DNA from: Acaryochloridaceae cyanobacterium VAR_48_metabat_390 | GTDB lineage: Bacteria > Cyanobacteriota > Cyanobacteriia > Thermosynechococcales > Thermosynechococcaceae | Length of the DNA: 33,662 nucleotides | Assembly (NCBI GenBank): GCA_031422435.1 | Contig: JANPLU010000081.1 | Coordinates: 1 to 33,662 of the forward strand | Reading direction: 5' to 3' | Position numbers and translations under genes: made by a program | The notes under the pieces: generated by a model | Databases searched by the model: none | What the model saw: only the letters and a program-made list of their open reading frames with translations | Told to the model about the DNA's origin: nothing | Shown: positions 1-28,836 of the stretch, in pieces | Numbering within the stretch: position 1 is the first letter of the stretch | Layout of the letters: each line of letters begins with the position of its first letter

Positions 1-204
1 CGGCTAGAGCTGAGATCCAAACTGCCCACGCCGCTCTACTGGTATCAGTTTCCAGGCGGTCGAAAGATTTTTTGGAACTGGGTTCTAGTTCGGGACTTTT
101 TGCTGCATGGTGGCAACATTCCAGAACACCAGCGGCTGATAGAGGAGTATCTAGCAACCCTAGAACCTGCCAAAAGCAAAACCCCCAGCCGTGGCGCGGC
201 TTAA
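1..204 (+). CDS. Partial small excisionase-like/DNA-binding protein (5' end outside window)
   Basis: Frame 1 is open from base 1: RLELRSKLPTPLYWYQFPGGRKIFWNWVLVRDFLLHGGNIPEHQRLIEEYLATLEP..., TAA at 202-204, 10 nt before the primase ATG. Resembles small proteins found before primases in cyanobacterial integrated elements. Confidence 0.6.
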   Translation, partial: RLELRSKLPTPLYWYQFPGGRKIFWNWVLVRDFLLHGGNIPEHQRLIEEYLATLEPAKSKTPSRGAA

Positions 205-214
205 GGGGGTCTAG

Positions 215-2542
215 ATGAAAAACTTACAGAATAATTCTAGCCTGAACCCAGCCCACTGGGAACATCTTCTGTCTGAGGGCTTTACCGACACCCAAATCGC
301 TGAGTCAATCATTAAGGTTCAGGGAGTGCGATCGCTTTCTGAACGGGAAGCGCAACAGCTTGGGTTTAAGTGCTGGTCTGGCAAAGACTGGCATACTGGC
401 AGCGGTCTTTACCTGCCCTTTAGAAATGGATTTGGACAACTTAGGCTTGATACCCCTTTCATCCGAGAAAAGGGCAAGCCTACCAAATATTTAACGCCAG
501 TGGGAAAAGGTTCTGAACCTTTTATTCCAAGCGGATGCAAAGTGATCACTGAAGGGCTAAAGGATGCCTTGGCAGGCACCTTGCATGGAGGTGTTCCTAC
601 AGGTGCAATTGCTGGGGTTAGCCACTACCGCAAGACGCTCAACCCTGGTATTGGACACATTATTTTATTTGATGCCGATGGGTGGGATAACCCTCAGGTT
701 TTTGCTCAGCTCATTCACGCTGGGAAATGGTGCAATGGTCGGGTTGTATTGCTGCCAAAAATCGAAGGACAGCCCCATGCTGGGTTGTGCGAATACTTTA
801 AAGCTGGGTATACGGCTGAAGACTACCAAAAACTTTTGGAATCAGCACAGCGTCCTGAGGATTTACTTCAGGAGTGGCCGGAACACTGGAACGTCGGAAC
901 ACCTTCCTCAAAGATCGTCAGACTTGCCGAAATAGCCGTTAAGCTGGCGACCTTATACCTTTCAGAGTCTGAAGCTGAGGCTTTTACTCGAAGACTTGTG
1001 GATTCTCACAAGACAGCAGGTATAAGGGTTCGCAGCCTTGAGAAATCCGTAAAACCGTTAAAGCAGCGTCAAGACCGGAAAGAGAAAGAGCTTACTCAAA
1101 CAACTTTCCAGAAAGAATACGCTTTGCTGAAGGTGAAGTTTGGGGAACGAATGCGGTTTAATTTGCTAACCAACGCAATTGAACTTGATGGAGTTCCATT
1201 CAAGGCTGAAGATGCGAAGGTCGTTTTTTCATTGGATCATGGCTTGCCCCTTCGTGGCGGCTGTGATGACTTGATTAAATCAGTCCTGAAAATTGCTAAA
1301 CCGCTTGCATATCATCCGGTTCAAGACTACTTGAATCAAGTCTGGAACACCTGGCGCAGTCAGTTAGACCTAGGAAGTTTTTTAGAAAATGCTGCTGTCA
1401 CTTATCTGGGGAATGAAGACCCTATGGCAAGCATTTTCCTCAAGAAAAGCTTGATTTGTGCCGTAGCAAGAGCCTTAAGGCCAGGATGTAAGGTTGACAC
1501 AGCAACCGTTCTTGCTGGCGCTCAAGGCTTGGGTAAGTCTCAGTTTTGGAAAACTCTGGCTTCGCCGGATTGGTTTTGTGATGACTTTAATGACATCGAC
1601 AATAAAGACCACCTCCTAAAGCTTCATGAGGCTTGGATTATTGAGTGGCCTGAGCTACATGGACTCAGCCGTAAGGAAGCAACCCGTGTCAAAGCGTTCA
1701 TGACAACAGCGCGCGAACGCCTTCGCAAGCCCTATGCGAGAGAAGCTGACTGGATGGATCGCCCGTCAATTATTGTTGGCTCATCCAATGACAGCGAATT
1801 CTTAACTGATTCAACAGGGAACCGCAGATGGTGGGTGATTGAACTCAAGACAAAAATCAACATCAATAAGGTTGCTCACGAGCGTGATCAGATTTGGGCT
1901 GCGGCTGTTGAGCTATACCGCAGGAATGAACCGTGGTGGTTATCTGATGTTCAAGAGACAGCCGCTGATGGTATTCGCAAGCAATACCAGGTTGTTGATG
2001 CTTGGCATGAGGCAATCGCTGCATACCTGGAAGGGAAGCCTCAGGTATCGGTCAGTGAAATTTTAAGCGAAGTTTTGAAAATTGAGGTTGGACGTTGGGA
2101 CAACGCCATGAACTCACGGGTTGGCGCTGTCTTAAAGCGCTGCGACTGGGAACCAGCATCAAGTCCACGAATGCATTGGTTTGGGGCAAAAAAGCAAAGG
2201 GTCTGGCAGCCGCGATCCAAACCCTACGATATTAAACTTTCTGAGCCTCAAAAAAATGCCGTTCCAGCTGTTCCAGTGTTCCATGAACGCCAGAACCAAG
2301 ATACAGAGGCTAATACAGACCGGAACGGTAGTGGAACGCCAGCCATTTCAGATGCCGTTCCAGCCGTTCTGACGGAACACCGGAACGGCAATGGAACGCT
2401 AGCCGGAACGGCAGGCGTTCCGGTTGAAATGATTTCACCGAAAGAAGTTCAGCCACTACGGAACGCTGGAACGGCTGGAACGCCTATTTCTGAAAGGGCA
2501 GAGATTAGAGATAAAAAACTGGAGGTGTTAGATGAGTTCTAA
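215..2542 (+). CDS. Primase-helicase replication protein (N-terminal Toprim/DUF3854-like primase + VirE/VapE-family P-loop ATPase)
   Basis: Toprim-like ITEGLKDA...AGV...ILFDAD; Walker A GAQGLGKS; WIIEWPEL; RKPYAR and FLTDSTGNRRWW motifs typical of VirE-family helicases. Confidence 0.85.
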   Translation: MKNLQNNSSLNPAHWEHLLSEGFTDTQIAESIIKVQGVRSLSEREAQQLGFKCWSGKDWHTGSGLYLPFRNGFGQLRLDTPFIREKGKPTKYLTPVGKGSEPFIPSGCKVITEGLKDALAGTLHGGVPTGAIAGVSHYRKTLNPGIGHIILFDADGWDNPQVFAQLIHAGKWCNGRVVLLPKIEGQPHAGLCEYFKAGYTAEDYQKLLESAQRPEDLLQEWPEHWNVGTPSSKIVRLAEIAVKLATLYLSESEAEAFTRRLVDSHKTAGIRVRSLEKSVKPLKQRQDRKEKELTQTTFQKEYALLKVKFGERMRFNLLTNAIELDGVPFKAEDAKVVFSLDHGLPLRGGCDDLIKSVLKIAKPLAYHPVQDYLNQVWNTWRSQLDLGSFLENAAVTYLGNEDPMASIFLKKSLICAVARALRPGCKVDTATVLAGAQGLGKSQFWKTLASPDWFCDDFNDIDNKDHLLKLHEAWIIEWPELHGLSRKEATRVKAFMTTARERLRKPYAREADWMDRPSIIVGSSNDSEFLTDSTGNRRWWVIELKTKININKVAHERDQIWAAAVELYRRNEPWWLSDVQETAADGIRKQYQVVDAWHEAIAAYLEGKPQVSVSEILSEVLKIEVGRWDNAMNSRVGAVLKRCDWEPASSPRMHWFGAKKQRVWQPRSKPYDIKLSEPQKNAVPAVPVFHERQNQDTEANTDRNGSGTPAISDAVPAVLTEHRNGNGTLAGTAGVPVEMISPKEVQPLRNAGTAGTPISERAEIRDKKLEVLDEF
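2258..2484. repeat. Iteron-like GGAAC/GTTCC repeat cluster, putative replication origin inside the primase 3' end
   Basis: About 14 GGAAC or GTTCC pentamers in ~225 bp; outer clusters 2258-2282 and 2460-2484 form a 25-bp inverted repeat (22/25 match). Confidence 0.65.
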
Positions 2543-2885
2543 CCCCCCTATCGGTGCGATCGCCTACGGTCGGTCTGGGGTTGCTTGCCTTGTCACTGAA
2601 CGAGAAGCGGATCGCCTTGCCCTGCAATTCCCAGACGGAAAGGTGAAGTATGTCACCCTTGATTCTGTGGTGCGCTGGCAGATGCCACAGCCACTCAAAC
2701 CAGGCGATCGCGCATTAATCATCAGCACCACAGCAACAGGCACCGTCGCTCATTTTGACAATGAGTTGGGCATTAGGCTCATCAACATTGAAGGACTGTA
2801 TGACCCCTTAACAGGCTACAAGGTCTTCTCTCAATGGTTTGACCCGTTAACCCTATGTTGTGCAATGCAGGAAAACGCGGCATGA
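2532..2885 (+). CDS. Hypothetical protein
   Basis: GGAGG RBS upstream; overlaps the primase stop; operon context. Confidence 0.65.
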   Translation: MSSNPPIGAIAYGRSGVACLVTEREADRLALQFPDGKVKYVTLDSVVRWQMPQPLKPGDRALIISTTATGTVAHFDNELGIRLINIEGLYDPLTGYKVFSQWFDPLTLCCAMQENAA

Positions 2886-3133
2886 AGAAAACCCACTGCG
2901 ATCGCCCCCAACAGCCCACTAAAACATTAAGCCTGTGGTTCAGACACCTAAACCTGAACCCTCAACAGCTTCAGGACATTGGTATGCAATTTAGTCGTGA
3001 ATACTTCCGGCTCTATGGGCAGCCACCTTATAAACGCCATGGAATCAACGTCTACACAGATCAAAACCTGCTGACCATCCGCATAGAGCGCATTCGAGTG
3101 AGAGACCATTACCAAAGGACAGCCCATGACTGA
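2882..3133 (+). CDS. Hypothetical protein
   Basis: ATGA overlap with the previous stop gives the start MKKTHCDR at 2882; coupled to the next ORF. Confidence 0.55.
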   Translation: MKKTHCDRPQQPTKTLSLWFRHLNLNPQQLQDIGMQFSREYFRLYGQPPYKRHGINVYTDQNLLTIRIERIRVRDHYQRTAHD

Positions 3134-3335
3134 AATACCTGGACGATACTACCCAGCCCGTCAAACAGAACAAAAGCAACAGCTCTACAAAGAGTGTGTC
3201 CGCTTGCTGAACCAGCTCCAGCGCAGTGCCCACGGCATCAAACTGCTGACCTTGGCGCGTAATGCCCTCAAGACCTACGCAGGCTACAAGACCCGACTAA
3301 GGCAGCATGAGAGGCAACAAGATGAGACGTTCTAA
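3126..3335 (+). CDS. Hypothetical small helical protein
   Basis: AAGGA RBS; overlaps the previous ORF; last gene of the replication operon. Confidence 0.6.
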   Translation: MTEIPGRYYPARQTEQKQQLYKECVRLLNQLQRSAHGIKLLTLARNALKTYAGYKTRLRQHERQQDETF

Positions 3336-3526
3336 GAAAACTTGAAAGGTACTGGTTGGGAATGAGCCAAGTGCGAGGTAAATACCGGAATTCCCCAACT
3401 AGATATCAAAAAAAAATTGATGGATGCCGCCACCGTTCGCCACCTATGGATTTTGGCAATCCCATAGAAATCAGCTATTAGCGCGTATCAGGCCATGCTG
3501 AATTCATAGAAAATACCGAGGAAAAA

Positions 3527-6352
3527 ATGGCAATCCAAAACCTTCAAATAAAATTCAGCACAGACGGCTTAGCAGAAGTCAAAGCCGCTGTAAATTCTGC
3601 AAAACAAGCCTATCTCGACTTTCTTAATAGGGTCTCTGCCGCTCAGACAGCATCCAACGAAGCTGTGCAGAAGTATGAGAAAGCTAGACAGGAGGCCAGC
3701 AGCGCCGCCAATCGACGTATTGAAGCCTCTTATCAAGTTTTAAAGGGGCAAGTCATAGCCAATACCTTTGAAATGAGAAAGGTTGCTATCGAGAACTTTG
3801 AAGCCATCAAAGCCAGTGGCGTTACCAGCGCCGTAGGGATTGCTCAGGCTTATTCTGATTTAACCAAGAGCCTCAAAGCTCTGGATGCCCAATTTAAAGT
3901 GACAGGTAGCCTTGCTGAACAAACGAGCCAGCGGGTTGTGTTAGCCTCCACTGCTTCAACTTCAGGGGGTATCCGTTTGGTGAGTGACGTACCTGCTGGT
4001 TATGTTGGCGTACCTGTTTCTGGTAAGACTTCTACGCCAACTTATGACATCCCCCCTAACACAGATCGTGACCCATTCGCCTTTGCCCCGGGCGTTAAAA
4101 TCCCTCAAGCTGCAACCCCTAAAACCCTGCTGGGCATCACTGGCAACACAGGCCGCAGCAGTGGACCACATTTGGATGTGAGATACAGCAGAGCTTATAA
4201 CCCAAATCGTCCAAGGGTTTCAGATGAAGTGCTAAATCGTCTGATGGTCGATGATAAGCCCTTAACCAGCTATCCCATCACTTCAGAACATCGGTCTAGG
4301 AATAGCGGTAGACCTACTCATGACGGGGTGGACTATGGCACCCCAGTAGGGGGCAAGATTACGACTAAAGTCCCAGTGGTCTATCGCTCTAAACCCGAAT
4401 GGGATAACGGCGGCGGTGGCTGGATAACAACCGTTCGCTTTGCCGACGGCGTAGAGATAGTGCTGCTGCATCAAGACCCATCGGTGCAAGAGCAGATTAA
4501 AAAAGCAGAAGGCGGTAGAACTGCCTCCACCTATCAGACCCAAGAAAACCAAGCTCAGAAAGAGGAAAACGAAGCGCGCAAAATCATAGAACAAACCCGT
4601 CGCCGTGCGGATGAGCGCCGCCAGCAGGTCAATGAGCAGCAGCGCTTAGCCCTTGAAGATAAACAGAAAACCGAGGTCTTAAAACAAGAGCAGGCGATCG
4701 CCACCATGCCCCCTGGCGGACGCAAAGAAACCGCTGAACTGCTGCTGAAGGTGACACAGAAAGAGAATCAGTACGCCCTAGAGCGGCTCCAGATTGAGCA
4801 GACCATCGCCCAACTGAAAGAGGAGCGTACCCGGAAACTAGAAGACCAGGGCACAGGGGAAACACCCAGCGGTGACTATACCTCTGGGCGTAGGCTGACC
4901 CGCAAACTTGATGGCAAAACCCCATCGGGTTATTTAGGAGGCAGAGACTATGCCAGTGCGATCGCCTCTTTAGAAAAGCGCAAAAGCTTACTGGAGGAGA
5001 ACCTGTTTGCCGAGCAGAAAATTCTTGCCGGAGAATTTGAGCAAAAACTCTCCGCCGAATCTGTGAAGCTGACTGAACGTCTAGAAACGACTGCCAAAGC
5101 AGTAGAAACCCTTGGACAGAAGTTTGCAGACGATACGCCTGAGAACCGAATGAAAGAGGCGGTTGCTGGTGTATCTAAAGAATTTGATAGCCAGACCAAA
5201 ACCCTGGATGAGGTGAAGAAGCAGCTCAATGAACAAGTGCAGGCAAAACTAGCCCTGAATTGGAGCACAGCCAAAGAGATGGAACAGCTTAAGCAGTTGG
5301 AGGCGCTGTACCAATCTCTTAACCAGACAAAAGCTAAAGCCGTGCAGGGCAAACGACAGGAAGTTCAATCTGTAGAGCAGCAGAAAGCGCTACAACGCAC
5401 CTTAGAGCTGACCCAACTCCAAGGGCAAATTAAACAGGCGCAGGCCAGCCAGCTTGAAAGTGTGGGCAACTTCAAAGAAGCGAATGCGCTCCGCCGTGAT
5501 GTAGCCGTATCTGAAGCTCTGGCACAACAGGCCGTGACCATGAATCAACTGAAAACCCAAAAGGCGATCGCTACTGACCCTGCTGCGATCGCTTACCTTG
5601 ATGCCCTGATTGAACGCACACAGCGCCTGAATAGATTACAGCTAAGCCACATTTATCAGCAGTACGACCTTTTGCAGCAGCGTTTAAGCACCATTTCTGA
5701 GGGCGTGGGCAGCGCAGTATCCGACGGCCTTAGCAACCTATTCAACACCCTACTAGATGGCACTAAAAGCTTTGGGGATGCCGTGCTGAGTACCCTGGGC
5801 GGCATCTTCAAAAGCATTAGTCAGATGTTTTTGCAGATGGCGATGCAAATGCTTCAAAGCTCAATCACTAAGGGATTGGGTAATTTGCTTGGAAGTTTGT
5901 TTGGCGGTCTTGGCGGCGCTGCTGCGACTGGATTTGGAGGTGGTGCACCTGGGCTTTTGTTTGGTCCTGGTTTTGCCTCAGGCGGCTACACAGGCAGGGG
6001 CGGCAAATACCAACCCGCTGGCATCGTCCATGCTGGCGAATACGTGGTGCGCTCCGAAGCGGTCAAGGCCGTAGGGCTACAGCGACTGAATGCCCTTAAT
6101 GCGATCGCAGGTTATGCAGACGGCGGCTATGTTTCCGATATGTTCAGCACAATAGGGTCAAACATTGCTTCAGGCCGTGGCAGTATGAGCACCCTCAGCA
6201 CGGCACGGGCAAAGAACGGCAGCGGGGGTGGCTCTACGCTGGTAGCAAACATTAATGTGACCACGCCTAACCCTGATGGGTTTAGACCGTCCGAACGGCA
6301 GCTAGGGCAGGCATTTTCTAATCAGGTGCAGCGGGGGATGGGGAGAAAGTAA
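3527..6352 (+). CDS. Phage tail tape-measure-like protein with internal M23-like peptidase domain
   Basis: Long Q/E/K/A coiled-coil; Gly-rich amphipathic segment; lambda-type TMP C-terminal motif FASGGYTGRGGKYQPAGIVHAGEYVV; M23 motifs GNTGRSSGPHLD and HDGVDYGTPVG; GAGG RBS. Confidence 0.8.
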   Translation: MAIQNLQIKFSTDGLAEVKAAVNSAKQAYLDFLNRVSAAQTASNEAVQKYEKARQEASSAANRRIEASYQVLKGQVIANTFEMRKVAIENFEAIKASGVTSAVGIAQAYSDLTKSLKALDAQFKVTGSLAEQTSQRVVLASTASTSGGIRLVSDVPAGYVGVPVSGKTSTPTYDIPPNTDRDPFAFAPGVKIPQAATPKTLLGITGNTGRSSGPHLDVRYSRAYNPNRPRVSDEVLNRLMVDDKPLTSYPITSEHRSRNSGRPTHDGVDYGTPVGGKITTKVPVVYRSKPEWDNGGGGWITTVRFADGVEIVLLHQDPSVQEQIKKAEGGRTASTYQTQENQAQKEENEARKIIEQTRRRADERRQQVNEQQRLALEDKQKTEVLKQEQAIATMPPGGRKETAELLLKVTQKENQYALERLQIEQTIAQLKEERTRKLEDQGTGETPSGDYTSGRRLTRKLDGKTPSGYLGGRDYASAIASLEKRKSLLEENLFAEQKILAGEFEQKLSAESVKLTERLETTAKAVETLGQKFADDTPENRMKEAVAGVSKEFDSQTKTLDEVKKQLNEQVQAKLALNWSTAKEMEQLKQLEALYQSLNQTKAKAVQGKRQEVQSVEQQKALQRTLELTQLQGQIKQAQASQLESVGNFKEANALRRDVAVSEALAQQAVTMNQLKTQKAIATDPAAIAYLDALIERTQRLNRLQLSHIYQQYDLLQQRLSTISEGVGSAVSDGLSNLFNTLLDGTKSFGDAVLSTLGGIFKSISQMFLQMAMQMLQSSITKGLGNLLGSLFGGLGGAAATGFGGGAPGLLFGPGFASGGYTGRGGKYQPAGIVHAGEYVVRSEAVKAVGLQRLNALNAIAGYADGGYVSDMFSTIGSNIASGRGSMSTLSTARAKNGSGGGSTLVANINVTTPNPDGFRPSERQLGQAFSNQVQRGMGRK

Positions 6353-6364
6353 GTTTAGCCAAAG

Positions 6365-6401
6365 AAAAGCCCCTGCTAGATATCTTCTAGCAGGGGCTTT
6401 T
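6365..6401. terminator. Bidirectional intrinsic terminator
   Basis: Perfect 16-bp inverted repeat aaaagcccctgctaga/tctagcaggggctttt between convergent genes. Confidence 0.85.
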
Positions 6402-6416
6402 GATTCGGATTTTTAG

Positions 6417-6632
6417 TTAAAGCACCACTCCTAAATCTTTAAGTATGTTGCCAACATTAATCACTAAGCGCCGTCTCTCTTGACCGTTGCCTATGTCCCG
6501 ATAATGGCGGTTTTTCTTTAAGGTGCCGTCATTTATTTTGTTGCGTATTGAGTTTTCGCTAAAAGTTGGAATGCCTATTTCTTTAAAGAAAGCAGCGGCT
6601 TTTTTAGGTGTTGTTAATAGTGGTATTTTCAT
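6417..6632 (-). CDS. Small HTH/excisionase-like DNA-binding protein
   Basis: 71 aa, basic; TPKKAAAFF...SENSIRNKINDG...RHYRD pattern of MerR/Xis-like winged HTH. Confidence 0.6.
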   Translation of the reverse strand: MKIPLLTTPKKAAAFFKEIGIPTFSENSIRNKINDGTLKKNRHYRDIGNGQERRRLVINVGNILKDLGVVL

Positions 6633-7120
6633 GTCTCTGTAACTAACTGCTCCGCAAATCTTAAAGTGAACCAGCTTTTACCTCCTTTTGTAGCCTCAAG
6701 CAAGGTATTGAAATAAAGATTTTTTTCTGGTCTAAGCACTTGGAAATTATTGAGCACTATTTTGAAGGTGAAGCCCTGAGAGTGGAGGACTGGAACTACG
6801 ATGCCTCTCTTCTCAGGATTTAGCCAATCGCTTGAGTCAGGGCAAGTACAGGTTGTAGCGCGAAACCAGAATACGTGTGGAAGTTGGGAACCTTTTTGAG
6901 CTTCTTTGAAATGAACGTCATTATTGAAACCGTCAGGGTTTTTAAGCTTTTCAATGACTTGCGATAAGTCTGATTCTAAATCCATGCAACATATTGAAAA
7001 AGCATCAGATAGACCTATGTATTCTTCGGCTCCTTTCAGCGCATGAGAAAGGATTTCTGCTTTTCTTTTGATGTGGTACAAAGTATCGTGGGGATGTTCC
7101 GAATGCACTGATACAGTCAT
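6629..7120 (-). CDS. Hypothetical protein
   Basis: 163-aa ORF, GAGG RBS, ATGA overlap with the downstream gene. Confidence 0.6.
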   Translation of the reverse strand: MTVSVHSEHPHDTLYHIKRKAEILSHALKGAEEYIGLSDAFSICCMDLESDLSQVIEKLKNPDGFNNDVHFKEAQKGSQLPHVFWFRATTCTCPDSSDWLNPEKRGIVVPVLHSQGFTFKIVLNNFQVLRPEKNLYFNTLLEATKGGKSWFTLRFAEQLVTET

Positions 7121-7168
7121 TTGATTTGAACCTCATAAATAGTATTTGCCGTCTGCTAGAGCCTGAGA

Positions 7169-7417
7169 TTAGGTCGGCGGACTTTTCTCAATCCATGATG
7201 GAATGTAGCCTCCAGGCCATCGCCAATAGTGGGGAAAAGATTCCGCAACAATGCCTTTGTATATAAGCACTGGGGTTCCTAATGGATAGCCTAAGTCCCT
7301 AAAGCCCTTCCAAGGCACATAAATAAAGCCTTCTTTGCTTAAAACCATCCCTCCATCCCTAAAGCAGCCAACAAACAAGCCATTGGGGCAGAACAAAGGA
7401 GATTTTGGGTTATTCAT
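7169..7417 (-). CDS. Hypothetical protein
   Basis: ATGA-coupled to the upstream gene in the minus-strand operon. Confidence 0.5.
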   Translation of the reverse strand: MNNPKSPLFCPNGLFVGCFRDGGMVLSKEGFIYVPWKGFRDLGYPLGTPVLIYKGIVAESFPHYWRWPGGYIPSWIEKSPPT

Positions 7418-7764
7418 GCCGCCACTCTGACTTCAGCCTGAGAAATGCGATCGCGTACCTGCAACTTCAGCACCGAAAACTGAGCGCGATAGAACGCCAA
7501 ATCAATTTCCAGCTCTGCCTTACGATCACCCATCCGCACCGCCATAGACATAGCCGACCCGTATCGCTTATCTAAAGCCAGCAGCTCTAACCGCTTCGCC
7601 TTACGCTGGGCATCATTCTTAAGCTCAGCATCAAAGGCGATCGCCCGTTCTGCCTGATTAACTGCACCGTTTATCGCCTCCTGCACCCGCCGCAGGTCGC
7701 GCACGAGCCTCAATAGCTCCTTCTCAACCTCAGCAATCGCCCTGGGATACTCTGATAACTTCAT
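7414..7764 (-). CDS. Cyanobacterial mobile-element coiled-coil hypothetical protein
   Basis: MKLSEYPRAIA...IAFDAELKNDAQRKAKR pattern seen in cyanobacterial plasmids/prophages; AAGG RBS supports the start at 7764. Confidence 0.75.
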   Translation of the reverse strand: MKLSEYPRAIAEVEKELLRLVRDLRRVQEAINGAVNQAERAIAFDAELKNDAQRKAKRLELLALDKRYGSAMSMAVRMGDRKAELEIDLAFYRAQFSVLKLQVRDRISQAEVRVAA

Positions 7765-7793
7765 GACCAATACCTTTATAAATGATGAGTAGT

Positions 7794-7816
7794 AAAAGGG
7801 CGGCAAGACACCGCCC
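7794..7816 (-). terminator. Intrinsic terminator-like hairpin
   Basis: gggcgg/ccgccc stem followed on the minus strand by TTTT, just after the 7824-8033 gene. Confidence 0.5.
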
Positions 7817-7823
7817 CAAACAA

Positions 7824-8033
7824 TTAGCCGCTTAGATTAGCCCCATAAAGCCCTACGACAGAACACCAAACATTTTTGAGAGCCTGGTACCGCCGAGCCA
7901 GCTCAGTGGGGTCATCAGACTGACCGCCATCGGCTAAATCGAGAAAACCATTAAGGCGATCGCTTAGTGCTGACAAATCGCCCACTAAATTAGGGCTTAG
8001 AGCCACCGTAGGACGTGTGATAACCTGTGACAT
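7824..8033 (-). CDS. Hypothetical protein
   Basis: AGGAG RBS upstream on the minus strand; first gene of the leftward operon. Confidence 0.65.
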   Translation of the reverse strand: MSQVITRPTVALSPNLVGDLSALSDRLNGFLDLADGGQSDDPTELARRYQALKNVWCSVVGLYGANLSG

Positions 8034-8063
8034 GAGGACTCCTGTTTTGTGAGTTTAAGAAGC

Positions 8064-8100
8064 AAAGAGCGCTTAATGGTTGGATGCCTAGGCGCTCTTT
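8064..8100. promoter_or_regulatory. Leader hairpin upstream of the leftward operon
   Basis: aaagagcgc/gcgctcttt stem extended by 3 bp, in the 5' region of the 8033 gene; function unknown. Confidence 0.4.
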
Positions 8101-8237
8101 TGTTGTATCTGTACCCCTTAATTATAGCCAGTATACGACTAATAGGCAATAGATTTTGTCATGATTTATGTAAATTATTGTTACCTTGATTTGCGAGTAG
8201 ACAAGTTATACTGAGGCGGTAGAGAGCAAGGAATAAC

Positions 8238-8432
8238 ATGGCTAGACCAGGCGGCAACCCCGATATCGGGAAATATGCCTTTGTACCAGCGGGTGAGGAA
8301 TCATTGAGTGTGCAGCTGCAGGTACGGATTACTGAGAGCCAGAATGTACGGCTGAAGCAGATACCCAAATGGCAAGAATTTGTGAGAAGTGCGATCGCTG
8401 AAAAACTGGAGCGTGAAAGCCCCAAACAATAA
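8238..8432 (+). CDS. Small ribbon-helix-helix-like regulator (RPGGNPD type), copy 1
   Basis: Beta-strand pattern LQVRIT followed by two helices (WQEFVRSAIAEKL); AAGGA RBS; paralog at 11477-11671. Confidence 0.75.
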   Translation: MARPGGNPDIGKYAFVPAGEESLSVQLQVRITESQNVRLKQIPKWQEFVRSAIAEKLERESPKQ

Positions 8433-8484
8433 GCGCGTATACTTGCAAATAAGCTATAATAGTAGGTAGTAATGAGACTACCCT

Positions 8485-8945
8485 ATGAGCGTAATTGCAG
8501 TAACAGGCCCACGCCGACTAAGCCGAGCCGAGCATGAACAAGCCTTGGCAGACCTAAAGTGCTTGAGAACGTGTGAACGATGGCTAGTAGGCGATGCCCC
8601 TGGGCTGGATGAATTGGCACGGCTGGTATGCCAGGGCGAAGCGCTGCATACCAGCCGTGCCAAGTAAAGCCCCAGCTACCAGGGCGCGCCCGATATGCCG
8701 AGCGAAGCACCCGTATGGTGAGAGCGCTGGCGCAAGTGAGAGGAACCCTACACGCATGGCCTAATAAACCAGCACCCCCAGACCTACGCCCTAGCCGAAA
8801 CTGGCCTAAAGGTGCCCAAGGCAGCGGCACATGGGGAACGATAGCCCTAGCCGTGGGGTTGGAGCTGAATGTAGAGCTGCACCCATTAATGAATGACCTG
8901 CGGCTGCCAGAGTGGGTAGAAACCCGACAGATAGCCTTGCTGTAG
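8485..8945 (+). pseudogene. Frameshifted SLOG-superfamily (Smf/DprA-LOG fold) protein
   Basis: 8485-8667 gives IAVTGPR and VGDAPGLD; the overlapping frame ending at 8945 gives YAERS and GSGTWGTI. Joined across a frameshift near 8645-8665 they form the SLOG motif order. Confidence 0.65.
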
Positions 8946-8981
8946 AGCGCAAAAGGGTAAGCCCCTAACCAGGGCACCCTT

Positions 8982-9605
8982 ACCCCCAGGTTGACCGCGA
9001 GCTGAGCTGTTTGCCCCCTCTTGAGCACGGTTGGAGCGTAGCGGAAACGGTGCTTCTATACCCCCATGAGCGATTGGCAAGGGGCAAAAGTAAGCGATAT
9101 AAAAAGGGCTTACCACCCAAAAGCGCAGTAAGCCCCGTTTGTTGTTTTAGGCTTATGCCCAAAGTTATTTTAGGGGCTGGATGCGCCAATCAACAAAAAG
9201 CCCATCCATAAAGACGCGGACTTTTGATGTATTTCCCCCTTGCCAAAAAAGACCAACCCCCTACACTGGAAAATCTTGTGGCGGCGCGCGTAATGCAAAT
9301 ACCAGGCCAACCGTTTCGCATCGCCGCCGCCCCGACCAGAGCGCTATGGGGGTTGGTTCTTTTAGCGATGGGCTATGGGCAAGAGCGCGGCATCGCGCAA
9401 CGTTAAACAATCTGTTTAGATTCCAACCCTACCTGCATAGCCTCTCACCTATCTTCGGGAGGGACGCGGGGTTTCAGGGCGCGGGGTGTGGAGTGCCTGG
9501 GGCAATATTTCCGATGGCGATCGCCACCGTTCCGCACACCCCCAGGCGAGGCTTCACACCCAATCCAAGGTACTGAAGCAGAAGCCGTCCATAAAAAAAG
9601 GGCAG
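8982..9605. other. Long structured non-coding element, copy 1
   Basis: Closely similar to 11985-12629 with frame-breaking indels; multiple long inverted repeats; embedded TTGCCA-N16-TACACT. Confidence 0.8.
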
Positions 9606-9623
9606 GAGCCGAAGCCCCCACCC
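9593..9623 (-). terminator. Intrinsic terminator with C(UUCG)G loop
   Basis: Minus strand gggtgggggc-ttcg-gctcctgccc-TTTTTTT, 7 nt after the stop of the 9631-9870 ORF. Confidence 0.8.
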
Positions 9624-9630
9624 AAGAACC

Positions 9631-9870
9631 TTATGGCAACGGACAGCAAGGAAAGACCTGAACCAAGTAGGTACAGAGACCCGCACCCGCCTTGAACTGA
9701 ACTACACCCGGCGCAATGACCTGCACCGACTTAGCCCCGTGCCACTCTAAGCGCGAAGCCGCCTTAGCTGTAAACGCCTGGGGAACGCCAGCTAAGCGCG
9801 ACCAACCGCCACCACGTGCAACTACGTGACAGCCAGACCAATCAAACGAAATGCTTGGAGACATAAACAA
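9631..9870 (-). CDS. Hypothetical small protein
   Basis: ORF ends immediately before a strong terminator; last gene of a leftward cluster; start may be the ATG at 9864. Confidence 0.5.
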   Translation of the reverse strand: MFMSPSISFDWSGCHVVARGGGWSRLAGVPQAFTAKAASRLEWHGAKSVQVIAPGVVQFKAGAGLCTYLVQVFPCCPLP

Positions 9871-10034
9871 TAAAGCCTAAGACAACGGGGTAGGGCAAAC
9901 TGCCTACCCCGCTGTTGCCACGAGTGTATTGAGGTCAAGGGCAGCGGGTGGGGGACTGGGGCACCCCCCAGAGATAAACCTTTAGACCTTACAAACCCCC
10001 GCTGTTTACTGAAGGCACGGACTGAACGGAGCAA
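9822..10034 (-). CDS. Hypothetical small protein
   Basis: Overlapping member of the leftward small-ORF cluster; no recognisable motif. Confidence 0.35.
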   Translation of the reverse strand: MLRSVRAFSKQRGFVRSKGLSLGGAPVPHPLPLTSIHSWQQRGRQFALPRCLRLYCLCLQAFRLIGLAVT

Positions 10035-10251
10035 CGCTGCTTAGAGGGGGCGATTGACCCAAGACCATAACGTTGCGTAGAGAAGGAGTACCGCAAGCCC
10101 TTGACCCCACCCAGAGGCAGTACAATAGCGCCCCTGTGTTAGGCAAACAAATGTACTGCCCCCTTGAGGGGGTTGGCGGGGTGATATTTCTTAAAAGCGA
10201 AGCATGAGCAACCCAACAGCCGGAGCGAAGCGTTATGCGAACGGCTGACAA
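10006..10251 (-). CDS. Hypothetical protein, possibly the 3' part of a longer ORF from 10398 interrupted by TAG
   Basis: Same frame as the ATG at 10398, with a single in-frame TAG at 10308-10306. Confidence 0.35.
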   Translation of the reverse strand: MSAVRITLRSGCWVAHASLLRNITPPTPSRGQYICLPNTGALLYCLWVGSRACGTPSLRNVMVLGQSPPLSSVAPFSPCLQ

Positions 10252-10443
10252 AGTGGCGGAAACCGCCCCGTGCTGAAGCCTGCTAATGCCGCTATGCCAC
10301 CGCGTCTAAGCGAACGCTGCTAAAGAATACCCAACCGCTGCAATAGAGAAACCGCCGTCTTCAAAATGGCGATCGCTCACATTTGAATGGTCACTCATTG
10401 AGTCTGGTCAGAAACTTTAAAACAAAATCCAAACGGATTGCAT

Positions 10444-10480
10444 TATCTATCAAATAGATATATTATTGTATACAACAATA
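10444..10480. promoter_or_regulatory. Tandem palindromes (candidate operator) in a divergent promoter region
   Basis: tatctat-caa-atagata (10444-10460) abutting tattattgtatacaacaata (10461-10480), just upstream of an RHH-like gene. Confidence 0.5.
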
Positions 10481-10493
10481 TAAAAAATAAGAA

Positions 10494-10727
10494 ATGGGAA
10501 ACCCAAACCCTAGGCCAGAGAACTTAAGACACATACCACGCAGTGATGACACAACAGATCCACTTGCTGCTACTGCCTTAATGGCGCGGGTACCCGTGCA
10601 TATTGATGCAGCAGTGCGATCGCTACCCAACCGTTCGGCATGGCTACGCCGCGTCATCACCGAAGCAGCAGTGCGTGAACTGATAAAGGACGATGTCCTG
10701 AGCTTGTCGAAGGATGGTGAGGTATGA
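10494..10727 (+). CDS. Small ribbon-helix-helix-like regulator
   Basis: GNPNP N-terminus, LMARVP strand, DAAVRSLPNRSAWLRRVITEAA helices. Confidence 0.75.
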   Translation: MGNPNPRPENLRHIPRSDDTTDPLAATALMARVPVHIDAAVRSLPNRSAWLRRVITEAAVRELIKDDVLSLSKDGEV

Positions 10728-10996
10728 CCGAACGATGGACTGATGAACGGTTAGACAAATTTGCTTCTACCGTAGAGAACAATCTTATCGACCTGCATCG
10801 CGCCACCACTGGCAGAGAGAGGGCAATGGAGTCTTTAGCGCATACGCAAATTCAGATTCTTCAGCGTGTGGAACAGATGCAAGAGAACATTCAAACGATT
10901 CAAATCGAAATAAAAGAGATCCAGTCTGAGGTTGTAGGACTGCAAACCGAGAATCGTCGCATTCTGGATCGCCTGTTTGGGGAGCGTGAGATATGA
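10724..10996 (+). CDS. Small coiled-coil protein (WTDERLD type)
   Basis: Heptad pattern; GAGG RBS; ATGA coupling on both sides. Confidence 0.75.
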   Translation: MTERWTDERLDKFASTVENNLIDLHRATTGRERAMESLAHTQIQILQRVEQMQENIQTIQIEIKEIQSEVVGLQTENRRILDRLFGEREI

Positions 10997-11259
10997 CCGC
11001 AGCACAACCGGATAGATTAGATCGACTAGAAGCATTAGTTGAAGCCAATACAGTCAACCTTGCCAAACTGGAAGCAAGGCTAGAGAAACAGTCTGAACGA
11101 TGGGATGAGCGATACTTTCAGCTCACCAGAGACACCCTAGGGACAGCAAAGACCATTATTGTGACCGCTGGCACCGTAGTCATCCTTTCCCCATTACTTC
11201 AGGCACTTTCACCAGCCATCAAAGAGCTAGTTGTAAGACTGTTGGGAGAGCAGGGATAA
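10993..11259 (+). CDS. Coiled-coil protein with C-terminal hydrophobic helix
   Basis: PDRLDRLE start, heptads, hydrophobic IIVTAGTVVILSPLL; ATGA coupling. Confidence 0.75.
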   Translation: MTAAQPDRLDRLEALVEANTVNLAKLEARLEKQSERWDERYFQLTRDTLGTAKTIIVTAGTVVILSPLLQALSPAIKELVVRLLGEQG

Positions 11260-11276
11260 CTAATGCAGACAAACTC

Positions 11277-11297
11277 TATTTTCCCGTTATTTTCCCG
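11277..11297. repeat. Tandem 10-bp direct repeat, candidate integrase arm-type sites
   Basis: tattttcccg at 11277-11286 and 11288-11297, about 65 bp from the tRNA-derived core. Confidence 0.5.
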
Positions 11298-11360
11298 CAG
11301 ATGATTTTAGATACTGCTGTAACTGTTGCTCTGTAAGTCTTTCAGCTATAGATAGCCCAT

Positions 11361-11404
11361 CAATGGCATTGCAGGGGTCAGCGGTTCGAATCCGCTTAGC
11401 TCCA
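11361..11404 (+). other. 3' half of tRNA-Ala(GGC), putative attR core
   Basis: Anticodon loop ATGGCAT, 3' anticodon stem TGCAG, T-arm AGCGG-TTCGAAT-CCGCT and acceptor 3' strand TAGCTCCA; no D-arm or 5' acceptor strand upstream. Confidence 0.9.
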
Positions 11405-11476
11405 TTGGTTGGGGAACCATTATCTGATAAGGCTTGCGGGGTTTCAAGGGAAACTTCAAAAAGTAAGGTAAATAGC

Positions 11477-11671
11477 TTGGGACAAGGCAGACCAGGGGGG
11501 AACCCCGATTTGAAGCAGCACCAGTTCACCACCGGACGGGAAGAACCGTTATTGGAGCTGATGGCGGTGCGGGTGAGTGCGAGTATGAAAGCGCGTCTAC
11601 GCGGGTTAGAAGACTGGCAAGAATTTGTGAGAAGTGCGATCGCCAAGAAGCTGGAGCGTGAAGCACCATGA
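11477..11671 (+). CDS. RHH-like regulator (RPGGNPD type), copy 2; start uncertain or degenerate
   Basis: GRPGGNPD...WQEFVRSAIAKKLERE homologous to 8238-8432; the ATG of copy 1 corresponds to AAG here; in-frame TTG at 11477. Confidence 0.6.
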   Translation: MGQGRPGGNPDLKQHQFTTGREEPLLELMAVRVSASMKARLRGLEDWQEFVRSAIAKKLEREAP

Positions 11672-11970
11672 CTCAAGCACAGCCCGACCGTCTCGACCAG
11701 CTTGAGTCTGTGATTGAACGGATAGACAGGAAGCTGGATATTATTTCCGTTGACATCGTAGAGATTAAGGTATCGCAAGCTAGAACGGATGAACGCCTGA
11801 ATAGCATGGAGGTTCAGGTTTCAGACCTCAAAAAGAGTACAGATACTCAGTTTGCGGATATTAGGGTTCAGCTCCGCGCTCAGGATGGTCGTCTGTGGAC
11901 GTTTATTTCAGCGCTGGTGCTGGCAGTGGTGGGGTTGCTGACTAAGTTTTTGTTTTTCCCGCAAGCTTGA
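11668..11970 (+). CDS. Coiled-coil protein with C-terminal transmembrane anchor
   Basis: MTQAQPDRLDQLE start similar to the 10993 gene; heptads; LWTFISALVLAVVGLLTKFLFF. Confidence 0.75.
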   Translation: MTQAQPDRLDQLESVIERIDRKLDIISVDIVEIKVSQARTDERLNSMEVQVSDLKKSTDTQFADIRVQLRAQDGRLWTFISALVLAVVGLLTKFLFFPQA

Positions 11971-11984
11971 CTACTTCTTTACCC

Positions 11985-12629
11985 ACCCCCAGGTTAGCCG
12001 CGATCTGAGCTGTTTGCCCCCTCTTGAGCACGGTGCTTCTAATCTCTAGTCGGTGCGACAGCACGGAGAAAGCCCCATGAGCGATTGGCAAGGGGCAAAA
12101 GTAAGCGATATAAAAAGGGCTTACCACTCAAAAGCGCAGTAAGCCCCATTCGTTGTTTATAGACTTTGTCATAAGTATTTTAGGGGCTGGATGCGCCAGA
12201 AACAAAAAGCCCATCCATAAAGACGCGGACTTTTGATGTATTTACCCCTTGCCAAAAAAGACCAACCCCCTACACTGGAAAATCTTGTGGCGGCGCGCGT
12301 AATGCAATACCAGGCCAACCGTTTCGCATCGCCGCCGCCCCGACCAGAGTGCATGGGGGTTGGTTCTTTTAGCGATGGATAAAGGGCAAGAGCGCGGCAT
12401 CGCGCAACGTTCAACAATCTGTTTAGATTCCAACCCTACCCGCATAGCTCCCACCCAACCCATCTTCGGGAGGGACGCGGGGTTTCAGGGCGCGGGGTGT
12501 GGAGTGCCTGGGGCTAAAGTGCAGTGCGAAGAGCAAGCGCAACGAAGTCGTTCGCCACAATTCCGCACATCCCCAAGAGAGGCTTTACACCCAATCCAGA
12601 GTCTTGATGACGTCCATAAAAAAGGGCAG
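11985..12629. other. Long structured non-coding element, copy 2
   Basis: Homologous to 8982-9605 with the same stems and TTGCCA(12249)-N16-TACACT(12271). Confidence 0.8.
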
Positions 12630-12657
12630 AGTCTGGCGGTCTTTCAGACCCGTGCCC
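12618..12657 (-). terminator. Intrinsic terminator-like hairpin
   Basis: Minus strand gggca-c-gggtctg...cagactc-tgccc-TTTTTT at the same position as the terminator of copy 1. Confidence 0.65.
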
Positions 12658-12930
12658 TCGGAAGTAGTGAGAATTTTAAGGAGTACTGAAATTTCCAAAA
12701 ACTCAAGGAATTTACTCACAATCATATCAATAATTTCCTCAAGCCAGATATTCTAATTCCGGCTTAATATCATCGCTCCCAAAGATCCACACCCTTTTGA
12801 ATTGGCACATTGATTCAATACAGTCCTCCTGTCTTCTCTGTTTTAGAGATGTTCCCCTTCACTCGATCAAGCGATCTATATGGTTTGAATCTAGAGAAGC
12901 GTTAATTTCAACTCTAAACAAGCAATTTAT

Positions 12931-20960: not shown

Positions 20961-20989
20961 TTGCCAAGACCTCACTAGTCCGTTACGAT
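20961..20989 (+). promoter_or_regulatory. Sigma70-type promoter of tRNA-Phe
   Basis: TTGCCA-N17-TACGAT ending 21 nt before the tRNA. Confidence 0.65.
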
Positions 20990-26700: not shown

Positions 26701-28836
26701 TTATTGCGGATTGAGCAATGCCTGAAAGCTGAGTTCATTACGAATGGAGTCAAAATCTGTATCAGTTTTTGCCAGTTCTTGGTACTCATCAGGGCTAAGG
26801 TCTAGAGCCTTCCTTAGATTTTCTAGAGCAGACTTTAGATTCGCTTGCACAGCAAAGCAACAGGCTTTGTTATAGAAGGCATTAGAGTCAGCAGGCTTAA
26901 TTTCGATGGCTTTATCATAGCTGATGATCGCATTTTCAAGCTGGTCTAATTTAAACAGCGCATTCCCACGACTACAGTAGGCTTCGTATTTATCGAGCTT
27001 AATTTCGATGGCTCTATCATAGCTGGTGATCGCATTTTCAAGCTGGTCTAATCCGCTCAGTGCATTCCCACGGTTATACCAAGCTTCGTGAAAATTCGGC
27101 TTAATTTCGACGGCTTTATCATAGCTGGTGATCGCATTTTCAAGCTGGTCTAATTCGCTCAGTGCACCCCCACGGTTATACCAGGCTTCGTAGTAATCCG
27201 GCTTAATTTCGACGGCTTTATCATAGCTGGTGATCGCATTTTCAAAATTTTTCTGTGCTAAATCTTGGTAGTTCCCCAGCTTATTGTCCTCCCCCAGATA
27301 AGAAAAGCAGTTTCCCCGCATCCAGAAAATCTGAGCCAGCTCAGACCGTTGAGCTGACTCATTCCGTAATCCCAAACTCGGTTCTAGAATACCCAAGAGC
27401 CGAGTGAGGCAAGGTAAGGCTTCTCTATAACAGCTCAGCCGATAAGTAGAAAACGCAAACCCACTTAGGGGTTTCACCATTACCAAGGGTTGTCGCTTTG
27501 CCTCTTGTAACAGTAGCTTTGAAAGCTTTGACAAATACTCACCGGCTTCAACCCGATACTCTTTCGCTTCAATTAACCCATCTGGCGGGTCTAACAGCCG
27601 AGTTTCCATTGCAACCAGCCGCCTAAACCCCCGACGGGTCTCCCAAGCCTGCCACCAATGCCCTTTTCTTAACAACAGTGCTGTCTTTTGCACCAATACA
27701 GGCTGGAGTTCAACATCCACCTGACGCAGTAAATCCACCGCATCATAGAGCGATTTAGTCACCGGATACTGCCTAACGGCTAAGTCATAGCGCTCCTTCC
27801 AACTGCCCAACAAGGTAGGTCTAAAGGTTTGGATAGATAGCTGCTCTTGGCGTGTTTTCGCCTGAATCAGGTTTTCAACAATATTTCTAAACGTCCCGTC
27901 ATTCCTTCGGGCAATTTCGTCAAAATCCCTAGAATCAGCCTTAATGCTTCCATCCTTCACCCCCTCCTTCAGAACCGTCACAAATGCCTGCCACTGAGAT
28001 TCTGGCAATACATACTGCTCAAACCGTCTCCAAAACCTGAGGTACTTTGTCAGCTCCAACTTATCCCGCTCAGAGGGTTCCCCTTCTCGCTCTGGCACCA
28101 ATTCATTCCTTGCCGTTGCAACCACCCAAACCTCACGGCACTCCCGCTCATAAAACGCCAGAGTGCGCTGAAGCCGTTCCTGAAGCGGCTCCTTCAAAAT
28201 TTCATCCGAAATCCCGTTCCGCGACACCCCTTCTCGTTGCCGACTACTATACATCGGTCGGTTTAAATCATCCAGAAAAAACAGTAGTTTGCGCCGTTGC
28301 TCCATGTGCCCCTCCGGGAACATAACGGGTACATCCAACCATTTCCCATCCTTCAGCCTCAAAATCGTCCAACCTTCCTGATTGAGGCGTTGGGCAAGTT
28401 CAGCCGCCTCACGGGTCTTACCCAACCCCGTACGCCCCAGAATTAACAGACCTTTCTTCGTCCTTAGGCTAGATTCCAATTCCTGAGAGACATTCCGCCG
28501 CCGATCTCGAGAAACATAGGCAATATTAAAATCCGCTAAAGCATCATCATTCGCTTGCAAAGACCCCAGCAGACGCTTCAACACATCTTGCCTTTCTCCA
28601 TAAGGCATAATCACCTCAAACGGAAACGCATCCGCCAAACTTTTGGAAGGCGTAGGGCACTGTTGCCACCGCAAAACTCGTGGTAAGCCCCACTTCACAA
28701 AAGTCCAAGCTACCCCAGTAATCGTGAACAGAAGTGCGGCAATTGCACCAATGGCCTGCACAACATCTGGCTTATCCTGGATGTATTTCCAGACTTCTTT
28801 CAGGCCATCAAAAAGATTACGCACCCAACGGCTCAC
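26701..28836 (-). CDS. Membrane-anchored P-loop NTPase with C-terminal TPR repeats (STAND-like)
   Basis: N-terminal TM helix; Walker A GRTGLGKT; Walker B LLFFLDD; VVATAR; 34-aa TPRs; YNKACCFA cap. Confidence 0.85.
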   Translation of the reverse strand: MSRWVRNLFDGLKEVWKYIQDKPDVVQAIGAIAALLFTITGVAWTFVKWGLPRVLRWQQCPTPSKSLADAFPFEVIMPYGERQDVLKRLLGSLQANDDALADFNIAYVSRDRRRNVSQELESSLRTKKGLLILGRTGLGKTREAAELAQRLNQEGWTILRLKDGKWLDVPVMFPEGHMEQRRKLLFFLDDLNRPMYSSRQREGVSRNGISDEILKEPLQERLQRTLAFYERECREVWVVATARNELVPEREGEPSERDKLELTKYLRFWRRFEQYVLPESQWQAFVTVLKEGVKDGSIKADSRDFDEIARRNDGTFRNIVENLIQAKTRQEQLSIQTFRPTLLGSWKERYDLAVRQYPVTKSLYDAVDLLRQVDVELQPVLVQKTALLLRKGHWWQAWETRRGFRRLVAMETRLLDPPDGLIEAKEYRVEAGEYLSKLSKLLLQEAKRQPLVMVKPLSGFAFSTYRLSCYREALPCLTRLLGILEPSLGLRNESAQRSELAQIFWMRGNCFSYLGEDNKLGNYQDLAQKNFENAITSYDKAVEIKPDYYEAWYNRGGALSELDQLENAITSYDKAVEIKPNFHEAWYNRGNALSGLDQLENAITSYDRAIEIKLDKYEAYCSRGNALFKLDQLENAIISYDKAIEIKPADSNAFYNKACCFAVQANLKSALENLRKALDLSPDEYQELAKTDTDFDSIRNELSFQALLNPQ
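26894..27246. repeat. 102-bp tandem repeats encoding TPRs
   Basis: atcatagctg(g/a)tgatcgcattttcaa at 26914, 27016, 27118 and 27220. Confidence 0.9.

Follow-up and report, generated by a model that had tools for sequence, protein, structure and literature searches.

A covarying three-way-junction element with promoter boxes on one strand of cyanobacterial islands: a predicted single-stranded promoter or priming signal

In the available text of the reports concerned, promoters that function on single-stranded DNA are described as large stem-loops located 5' of leading-region operons (PMC12672017, PMC9849209, PMC11541004, 10.1101/2025.04.03.647016), and the transcripts of Frpo are stated to prime in vivo (10.64898/2026.01.09.698686). 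Folded single-strand origins that are primed by host polymerase are established as well, and the accessible part of one source places such an origin in an integrative element (PMC4595007); the M13 origin is presented, in the portion of the source available, as a promoter-like template (PMC7948647). Single-stranded promoters have been tested mainly in enterobacterial plasmids. Since the descriptions portray single hairpins, this is the shape that searches look for. A literature search in which few subscription journals were covered found no cyanobacterial or three-way-junction promoter of this type.

An element with such a branched fold was analyzed in a 33,662-nt contig of an Acaryochloridaceae cyanobacterium (this whole stretch is referred to as the window). 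Structural prediction and comparison of homologues suggest a new layout for a type of signal that plasmids and phages of other bacteria are known to carry.

Copies of the element and their distribution

Two copies of the element were present on the + strand of the window. Copy A (8982..9605) contained a core junction at approximately 9063-9372 and a right-hand stem module at approximately 9457-9561, and copy B was located at 11985..12629. The first-pass annotation of this DNA had described the two as diverged, and they were found to share 84.1% identity over 662 aligned columns. A search of the whole 3.70-Mb assembly revealed no third copy. It was also correct that divergence between the copies spared the stems drawn in that annotation (3 of 134 stem positions compared with 86 of 490 elsewhere) and that conservation was not driven by a protein, since no stop-free frame crossed the core of approximately 310 nt in any of the 8 copies described below.

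The boxes TTGCCA-N16-TACACT were found at the positions given previously, 9240-9267 in copy A and 12249-12276 in copy B, where the -35 starts at 12249 and the -10 at 12271. The tRNA-Phe gene at 20961 was preceded by TTGCCA-N17-TACGAT and thus shared TTGCCA as its -35. The boxes alone occurred at chance level, with 4 promoter-like sites in 8200-12800 against 3.2 expected. The boxes combined with both of the arms that pair with them were rare: among 27,072 candidate -35/-10 sites genome-wide, 11/11 was reached only by copies A and B, and a looser cut was passed by 16 further sites. Applied to 932 kb of retrieved loci, this descriptor picked up 6 distinct sequences of the element, plus 2 weaker sites unrelated to it. 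Since the descriptor was built from the element itself, these counts bear on chance and not on function.

When 48 genomes of one cyanobacterial family were searched with a covariance model of the promoter half, 7 were found to carry the element, with one or two copies per genome and 8 in all. Near copies (89-90% identity) were present in G001 and G007, and a diverged copy behind a SLOG-like gene in G017 (E 1e-12) led to the copies in G032, G035 and G405; the copies form two clades, with the window in clade 1. The same model gave one marginal match (25.7 bits) in 150 other genomes of the class and nothing new over 65 loci. When the clade-2 core was used for a blastn search of 401 class genomes, 2 matches were real, and 63 genomes gave only short matches at chance level. 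No match was obtained by blastn with both clades against 72,556 plasmid records or in the phage collection, and a protein search with VapE found no viral locus. All of the 65 metagenome and 21 viral pattern matches failed the profile (0/86), and the 11 viral matches to the mini-hairpin pattern matched neither profile. The 20-nt motif of the right-hand module was found at 10 genome loci, 5 of which were cyanobacterial and 5 unmatched beyond approximately the length of the motif, and in no viral sequence; the records carrying it were titled Thermosynechococcaceae, Acaryochloridaceae, Thermosynechococcus and Altericista.

The element had not been recognized as a described family, and this held: Rfam gave no match, even at E up to 5 across the core, and no transposon hallmark was present, since both a terminal inverted repeat and a target duplication were absent from its ends. 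The stems covaried, the -35 and the key -10 bases were kept in 8 of 8 copies, and no ORF was conserved.

Contigs from RNA runs covered part of the element at the G405 locus in one of four shallow runs (2 studies) and the neighbouring gene in all four; contigs give neither level nor strand, and this evidence carries no weight either way. A second comparison with RNA runs (four) gave too few changes within helices to extend the covariation. In the same genome, contigs from four of four shallow runs (2 studies) lay on L079:2440-2720, over a broken ORF of the 120-aa type, and this region possibly yields a small transcript.

Predicted fold and promoter boxes

Eight helices could be drawn in all 8 copies; the coordinates below are those of copy A on the + strand. 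P0 (9063..9067 with 9368-9372) closes a three-way junction. The upstream arm (9074..9091) pairs with the -35 strand through P1 (9074-9084/9236-9246, 11/11 Watson-Crick) and its extension (9085-9091/9220-9226, 7/7), and under the promoter model this arm would be the template strand at the -35. Its inner helices (9106..9203) were placed at 9106-9110/9199-9203, 9123-9127/9182-9186 and 9131-9135/9174-9178 and contained compensatory changes between the clades. The spacer helix P2 (9247..9261 with 9348-9363) begins at the base after P1 and consists of 15 pairs and one bulged T. The GC-rich downstream duplex P3 (9278..9330, pairing 9278-9286 with 9322-9330) is closed by a 35-nt loop. The first-pass annotation had paired the -35 and spacer arms and the stem 9484-9502/9540-9561 by hand, and all of these were verified. 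Its claim that pairing resumes past the -10 stood for P3, with one G-T pair, and for CTGG/CCAG (9266-9269/9336-9339) in the window's clade only. A terminator-like hairpin of the - strand lies inside the upstream arm at 9105-9136 and 12116-12147 in clade 1 only, and its + strand form competes with the inner helices.

Among 492 pair cells, 468 were Watson-Crick, 16 were G-T, 3 were A-C and 5 were other. Copy A was compared with the G035 copy over 47 pairs, P2 being left out of this count because of its ambiguous register: 28 pairs were unchanged, 15 were changed on both sides, 3 were changed on one side and 1 was broken. Thus, 18 of the 19 changed pairs still paired, a result reached by 0 of 200,000 partner shuffles, with most of the covariation representing one split between the two clades and the helix registers having been set with pairing in view. 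In the G017 comparison, 1 of 200,000 shuffles reached the observed score. For P2, the unedited MAFFT alignment contained 3 both-side changes among the 6 junction-end pairs, and sliding the partners out of register lowered pairing from 98% to 43-67%. P0 changed from CCCAT/ATGGG to GGCTA/TAGCC in clade 2, and the adjoining GAGCG and AGCGAT were invariant. Changes independent of the clade split were found in the distal hairpin of copy B, in the right-hand stem of G007 (G-C to A-T) and in G009 and one G003 copy, where a paired deletion occurred.

Prediction of individual helices was uneven. The predicted pairing probability of P0 ranged from 0.00 to 0.91, P1 was poorly predicted in G032, and the exact register of P3 in clade 1, which slips within a GGC repeat, had a low predicted probability. 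Because the MAFFT alignment was off by one column at the -35 helix, RNAalifold detected only part of P1 and nothing of P2. Folding z-scores, with 20 shuffles each, were -5.0 for RNA, -4.9 for + strand DNA and -3.3 for - strand DNA, and the two strands had similar folding energy; the core of G017 alone gave z = -1.4. These sequence comparisons indicate that the element is real and conserved under selection for structure.

The -35 box, located in P1 (9240..9245 in copy A), reads TTGCCA in four copies, TTGACC in G017 and G032, and TTGACA in G035 and G405. It scored 4-6/6 and was paired in 8/8 copies, with its partner arm approximately 155 nt upstream in each of them. The spacer helix starts one base past the hexamer, and its partner lies approximately 120 nt downstream (8/8). 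The -10-like TACACT and the following GG (9262..9269) form the 5' side of an internal bubble. This box reads TACACT in four copies, CACCCT in two, and CATCCT and TATCCT in one each, and the pattern YAYMCT-GG holds in 8/8 copies. On this strand, A, C-T and GG were invariant, whereas the facing strand was poorly conserved; as had been claimed, the latter differs between copies A and B. Sigma is known to read the -10 A, the last T and GG on the unpaired non-template strand. The 9-bp GC duplex starts 9-10 nt past the -10. The spacers, 16 nt in clade 1 and 15 nt in clade 2, are short for a duplex promoter, and together with -10 boxes such as CACCCT they are poor matches to the consensus.

Genomic context, companion modules and strand

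A 98-nt att repeat (11361..11458, + strand) was identical to the 3' part of tRNA-Ala(GGC) and its flank on contig C45. This contig carries the tRNA gene together with a tyrosine integrase gene, and 75 nt of it overlap with the start of the window. Therefore, copy A lies inside a tRNA-Ala-integrated element of approximately 14 kb. Copy B, just outside the repeat, retains a segment that was lost from copy A and is carried by G001 and G007; it is therefore probably what remains of a sister element and not a duplicated copy A. The backbone of the integrated element (215..6352, + strand) includes a VapE-domain primase/helicase-like gene (215-2542) and a tape-measure-like gene (3527-6352), the latter encoding a lone 941-aa protein with an M23-like segment. 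Among the ORFs scanned on C45 and window positions 1-11458, no capsid, terminase or relaxase family was found, and this region is possibly a satellite or a decayed prophage.

The SLOG/DprA-like gene preceding copy A (8485..8945, + strand) is frameshifted in the window and intact, encoding 153 aa, in G001 and G007; this label is a lead only (Atlas leads 0.88-0.89). Downstream of it lies a hairpin (8955-8985) whose - strand has a T run. Relatives of the gene occur in 30 of 401 class genomes, mostly without the junction element. A 79-aa ORF on the - strand (9631..9870), followed by a terminator-like hairpin (9600-9623), belongs to no known family, and no relative was found by protein search, viral scan or Atlas. 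Cassettes of a short gene followed by a small coiled-coil gene were observed at 8238-8432, 10494-11259 and 11490-11970 and also on contigs C34, C35, C50 and C125, that is, in several islands of the genome; the short genes (62-64 aa) gave no Pfam match and are presumably CopG-like. Three 102-nt tandem repeats at 26894-27245 correspond to 34-aa TPR units of a TPR gene and are ordinary.

In G035, an integrase gene next to tRNA-Arg lies approximately 19 kb from the copy, and the interval contains genes for an AAA_25 primase/helicase-like protein and a TrwB-like ATPase. On the 5' side of this copy, the opposite strand carries genes for a coiled-coil protein, DUF2958 and D12 adenine methyltransferase, and the opposite-strand genes on the 5' side of the clade-2 copies likewise include D12 adenine methyltransferase and DUF2958; on the right of these copies lies a + strand DUF2887/DUF4351 gene. 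In 8 of 8 copies, a gene in the sense of the fold strand ends 73-167 nt before the junction. The nearest convincing gene templated by the fold strand, in the copies where one is present, starts at least 465 nt away, past an oppositely oriented gene. Searches for the relaxase families TrwC, Mob_Pre and Relaxase gave no match in G000 or on the contigs bearing the element in G035, G405 and G001, and no Rep or relaxase family was recognized among the element ORFs scanned (NCBIfam only for two ORFs of C45). Several island ORFs belong to no assigned family, among them one of 319 aa on C45, those of 117 and 92 aa in the window and those of 171 and 282 aa in G035.

Approximately 300 nt to the right of copy A lies a rod of the Frpo type, module 2 (9873..10145, + strand), with homologues in 11 genomes. 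Its -35 (TTGACC at 10101) and -10 (TACAAT at 10121) are accompanied by a -35 partner (9933-9942) and a downstream partner (9873-9884), and it is aimed left at an ATG at 9864. In the nine copies examined, the -35 (TTGACC, TTGACT or TTGCAA) pairs with the upstream arm at 8-10/10, the -10 (TACAAT, TAGAAT or TACCTT) follows the -35 after 14-16 nt, the downstream duplex scores 9-10.5/12, and a - strand ATG is located 24-31 nt further on. The rod was the minimum-energy fold in G030, G021, G405 and G032, and for the window copy only the -35 helix was predicted. One clade has an extended -10 (TG) and a 16-nt spacer, and the other has a 14-15-nt spacer. Module 2 can be considered a candidate single-stranded promoter family in its own right, which would be aimed at the ATG of the small - strand gene; under this model, it marks the same strand as template independently of the junction element.

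The right-hand module (9457..9561, + strand) consists of a G-tract run and the stem 9484-9502/9540-9561. It was also found without the junction in G009 and twice in G003, and it was not found beside the clade-2 copies. Five G-tracts, resembling a quadruplex motif, were observed at 9457-9487, 12468-12498, L005 approximately 1495-1540, and in L004 and L007. In this region, a 21-nt G-rich strand was invariant in 7 copies, and the partner strand tolerated C, T or G at one position. Because the G-tract module follows the junction element (module 1) in the window but module 2 in G009 and G003, it may be concluded that modules are shuffled between elements. The right-hand stem was considered as a promoter and rejected, since no conserved -10 follows its TTNACA. 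No paper confirming GAAGCGG as a primosome-site motif was found, and this word was given no weight.

The pair cells distinguished the strands: 16 G-T cells occurred at 6 positions, compared with 3 A-C cells at 2 helix-end positions, among the 492 cells. This bias points to the + strand as the folding one, and it fits DNA and RNA alike. The predicted fold is specific to one orientation, with the companion modules all on the same strand. One companion is the mini-hairpin GTGC-GACA-GCAC, located in copy B at 12053..12064 (+ strand) and deleted in copy A. A hairpin GTGC-loop-GCAC occurred once in each of 11 related regions, which are stretches cut out around the modules, and always on the fold strand. 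None of the loops was GNRA: they read GACA, GATA and GGCA (three each), GTTA and GTA, and a twelfth copy had GAA. An unconstrained loop pattern recovered the same companion hairpins, and genome-wide only 7 of 133 such hairpins had a G..A loop. According to the accessible part of one source, GCGACAGC, GCGATAGC and GCGTTAGC are stable DNA mini-hairpins melting at 69.5-72 C, as is GCGNAGC (70-76 C), and r(GCGAAAGC) melts at 39 C (PMC13037366). Since the companion hairpins have loops of the DNA type and never of the GNRA type, DNA is favoured over RNA. Words of the form GC-GN(N)A-GC numbered 61 on the fold strand of the related regions compared with 25 on the other strand, with 21.5 expected, and showed no excess in G035, G009 and G003. 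GCGNAGC was biased 6 to 0 toward the fold strand in 8400-10400, at least 6 being reached in 7 of 3000 null runs; this bias was absent from the clade-2 cores and G009.

Proposed function, alternatives and comparison with known systems

The first-pass annotation had suggested a single-stranded DNA promoter or priming signal or, as another option, a promoter-mimic non-coding RNA; prediction supports the former, and the latter is disfavoured. On balance, the likeliest reading, with about an even chance of being right, is that the + strand, as single-stranded DNA, folds into the three-way junction and so lets host RNA polymerase prime second-strand synthesis. The strand would be exposed during transfer or replication of the element, and in the resulting fold both the -35 and the spacer would be paired, with the -10 left open. 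P1 and P2 may stack, so that sigma would see a continuous duplex of -35 and spacer and could grip the A, the T and the GG where the -10 strand is unpaired. The predicted start, near 9333-9334, lies across the bubble from the -10; from there transcription would proceed through the 9-bp P3 into its loop, inside which the polymerase would have no duplex ahead, and the RNA could then be extended leftwards by DNA polymerase. Once the strand had been copied, the fold would be lost, and what is left would be a weak promoter with a 15-16-nt spacer. At M13, a short primer is made from a hairpin of the same orientation. The polymerase facing the P3 loop and the lack of an adjacent templated gene argue for a priming signal rather than an early promoter. 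Points that weigh against this reading are that the searches described above recognized no relaxase or Rep and gave no match among plasmids and phages, that the spacers are short and the -10 boxes poor, that both strands fold with similar energy, and that the GCGNAGC bias is confined to part of the family.

The same single-stranded promoter might instead serve mainly to express the operon of methyltransferase, DUF2958 and coiled-coil genes on the opposite strand early after entry, by means of a long transcript running leftward, as with Frpo. The left-hand genes do lie on the strand that the fold DNA would template in 7 of 8 copies, those with enough flank or context (not copy B), and methyltransferases are typical of leading-region genes in the available text of one report (PMC11541004). 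The polymerase, however, would have to round the P3 loop, cross its own promoter and continue for 465-1300 nt over an oppositely oriented gene, and in clade 1 it would meet terminator-like hairpins of the - strand at 9136-9105 and 8985-8955; such a role is rather unlikely. Improbable, too, is a structured + strand RNA produced by read-through from the gene ending just upstream in 8/8 copies and acting as an open-promoter mimic, a sigma decoy similar to 6S RNA. The z-score of -5.0 obtained for RNA and the G-T bias would suit it, and the fold recalls the bubble flanked by stems of 6S RNA. Nevertheless, nothing in Rfam matches the core at E values as high as 5, a true 6S gene is located elsewhere in G000 (G000:C108), G035 and G405, the companion loop is never GNRA, and a sequence-specific TTGACA duplex is expected of DNA and not of an RNA helix.

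A similarly small probability is assigned to a non-priming role, in which the fold would capture polymerase or halt the replisome and, as a decoy or roadblock, keep neighbouring Frpo-type rods such as module 2 active by prolonging the single-stranded state. Such a barrier has a precedent in ssp2 of the F plasmid, according to the part of the source available (10.64898/2026.01.09.698686), and the fold is large, GC-rich and adjacent to module 2. Yet a roadblock should sit 3' of the promoters it protects, while the junction element sits 5' of module 2 in the window and clade 2, and in a pure barrier the -10 bases would not have to be invariant. It is slightly less probable still that the site is primed by the element's own primase-helicase or by host primase, in the manner of ssi, with incidental boxes: the elements encode primase/helicase-like proteins, and mini-hairpins occur at primase-dependent origins such as those of G4 and RSF1010 ssiA in the accessible text (PMC13037366), but convergence on TTGACA and the invariant A, T and GG at -10 spacing would be left unexplained. 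An ordinary double-stranded promoter or MITE-like repeat with an incidental fold is very improbable and largely refuted by the covariation. The 9/12 match of the boxes on duplex DNA and the + strand DUF2887/DUF4351 gene to the right of the clade-2 copies are in line with a duplex promoter; long-range compensatory changes are not, and a MITE is contradicted by the absence of a terminal inverted repeat and target duplication at the ends and by the presence of just one or two copies per genome.

Returning to the priming signal, it is possible, although doubtful, that its architecture is new as a whole: one arm of a three-way junction would pair with the -35 and another with the spacer, and the polymerase, directed into a closed loop, would be dedicated to making primers. 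The fold would be carried by tRNA-integrated elements that encode a primase-helicase and have no recognizable relaxase or Rep. If so, these cyanobacterial elements would pass through a strand-specific single-stranded stage by an undescribed route. A covarying three-way-junction form would widen the definition of the single-stranded promoter and would show sigma reading a promoter across a break in the template strand. The element is also a candidate cyanobacterial single-strand origin, possibly useful for vectors. The cluster of same-strand signals would mark which strand of the island is exposed and raises the question of how islands with no recognized relaxase become single-stranded.

With 6S RNA (RF00013), the element shares a predicted open bubble between helices that would mimic an open promoter, but it has no RF00013 match, was found only in mobile islands of hosts with a 6S gene elsewhere, and carries the DNA-type loop signature. 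RNA-polymerase-dependent single-strand origins form a second comparison. Unlike these, the element keeps a near-consensus -35, no rolling-circle Rep or relaxase was found in the elements scanned, the host is cyanobacterial, and no sequence similarity to known origins was detected. The M13 minus-strand origin has a short downstream hairpin that gives a short primer, a likeness to P3. As far as the origins are described in the text available, those of M13 (minus strand), ssoA/ssoU and ICEBs1 sso1 are likewise multi-helix folds read as promoters with no gene to express (PMC4595007, PMC7948647), and ICEBs1 sso1 illustrates that an integrative element can carry such an origin (PMC4595007).

The Frpo group differs in being described as single large stem-loops that lie directly 5' of the operons they drive, whereas here two different arms of a predicted three-way junction pair with the -35 and the spacer, and the polymerase would face a loop, with no templated gene adjacent. 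Members of the group lie in conjugative leading regions; in the present case no relaxase of three families was found on the element contigs, and the G035 island has a TrwB-like ATPase. No sequence match to Frpo or ssi was found in the plasmid collection. Three features of Frpo (the single stem-loop, the position directly 5' of a templated operon and sequence similarity) are thus absent, and the element is therefore not classed as one, a separation drawn from text descriptions of Frpo, whose figures and supplements could contain cyanobacterial or branched candidates. Module 2 does fit the Frpo layout, being a single rod aimed out of the hairpin base. As in Frpo1 and Frpo2 of F, ssi1-3 of ColIb-P9 and classes 2 and 3 of pESBL/F, in the available descriptions, the junction element is non-coding, its predicted fold depends on orientation and reconstitutes the -35 and -10 boxes, several copies can occur in one mobile element, and methyltransferase-type genes templated by the same strand lie nearby. 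Boxes rebuilt on one strand, as in Frpo classes 1-3, were found by prediction and covariation in 8 of 8 copies, and the model suggests that the element likely works like a Frpo.
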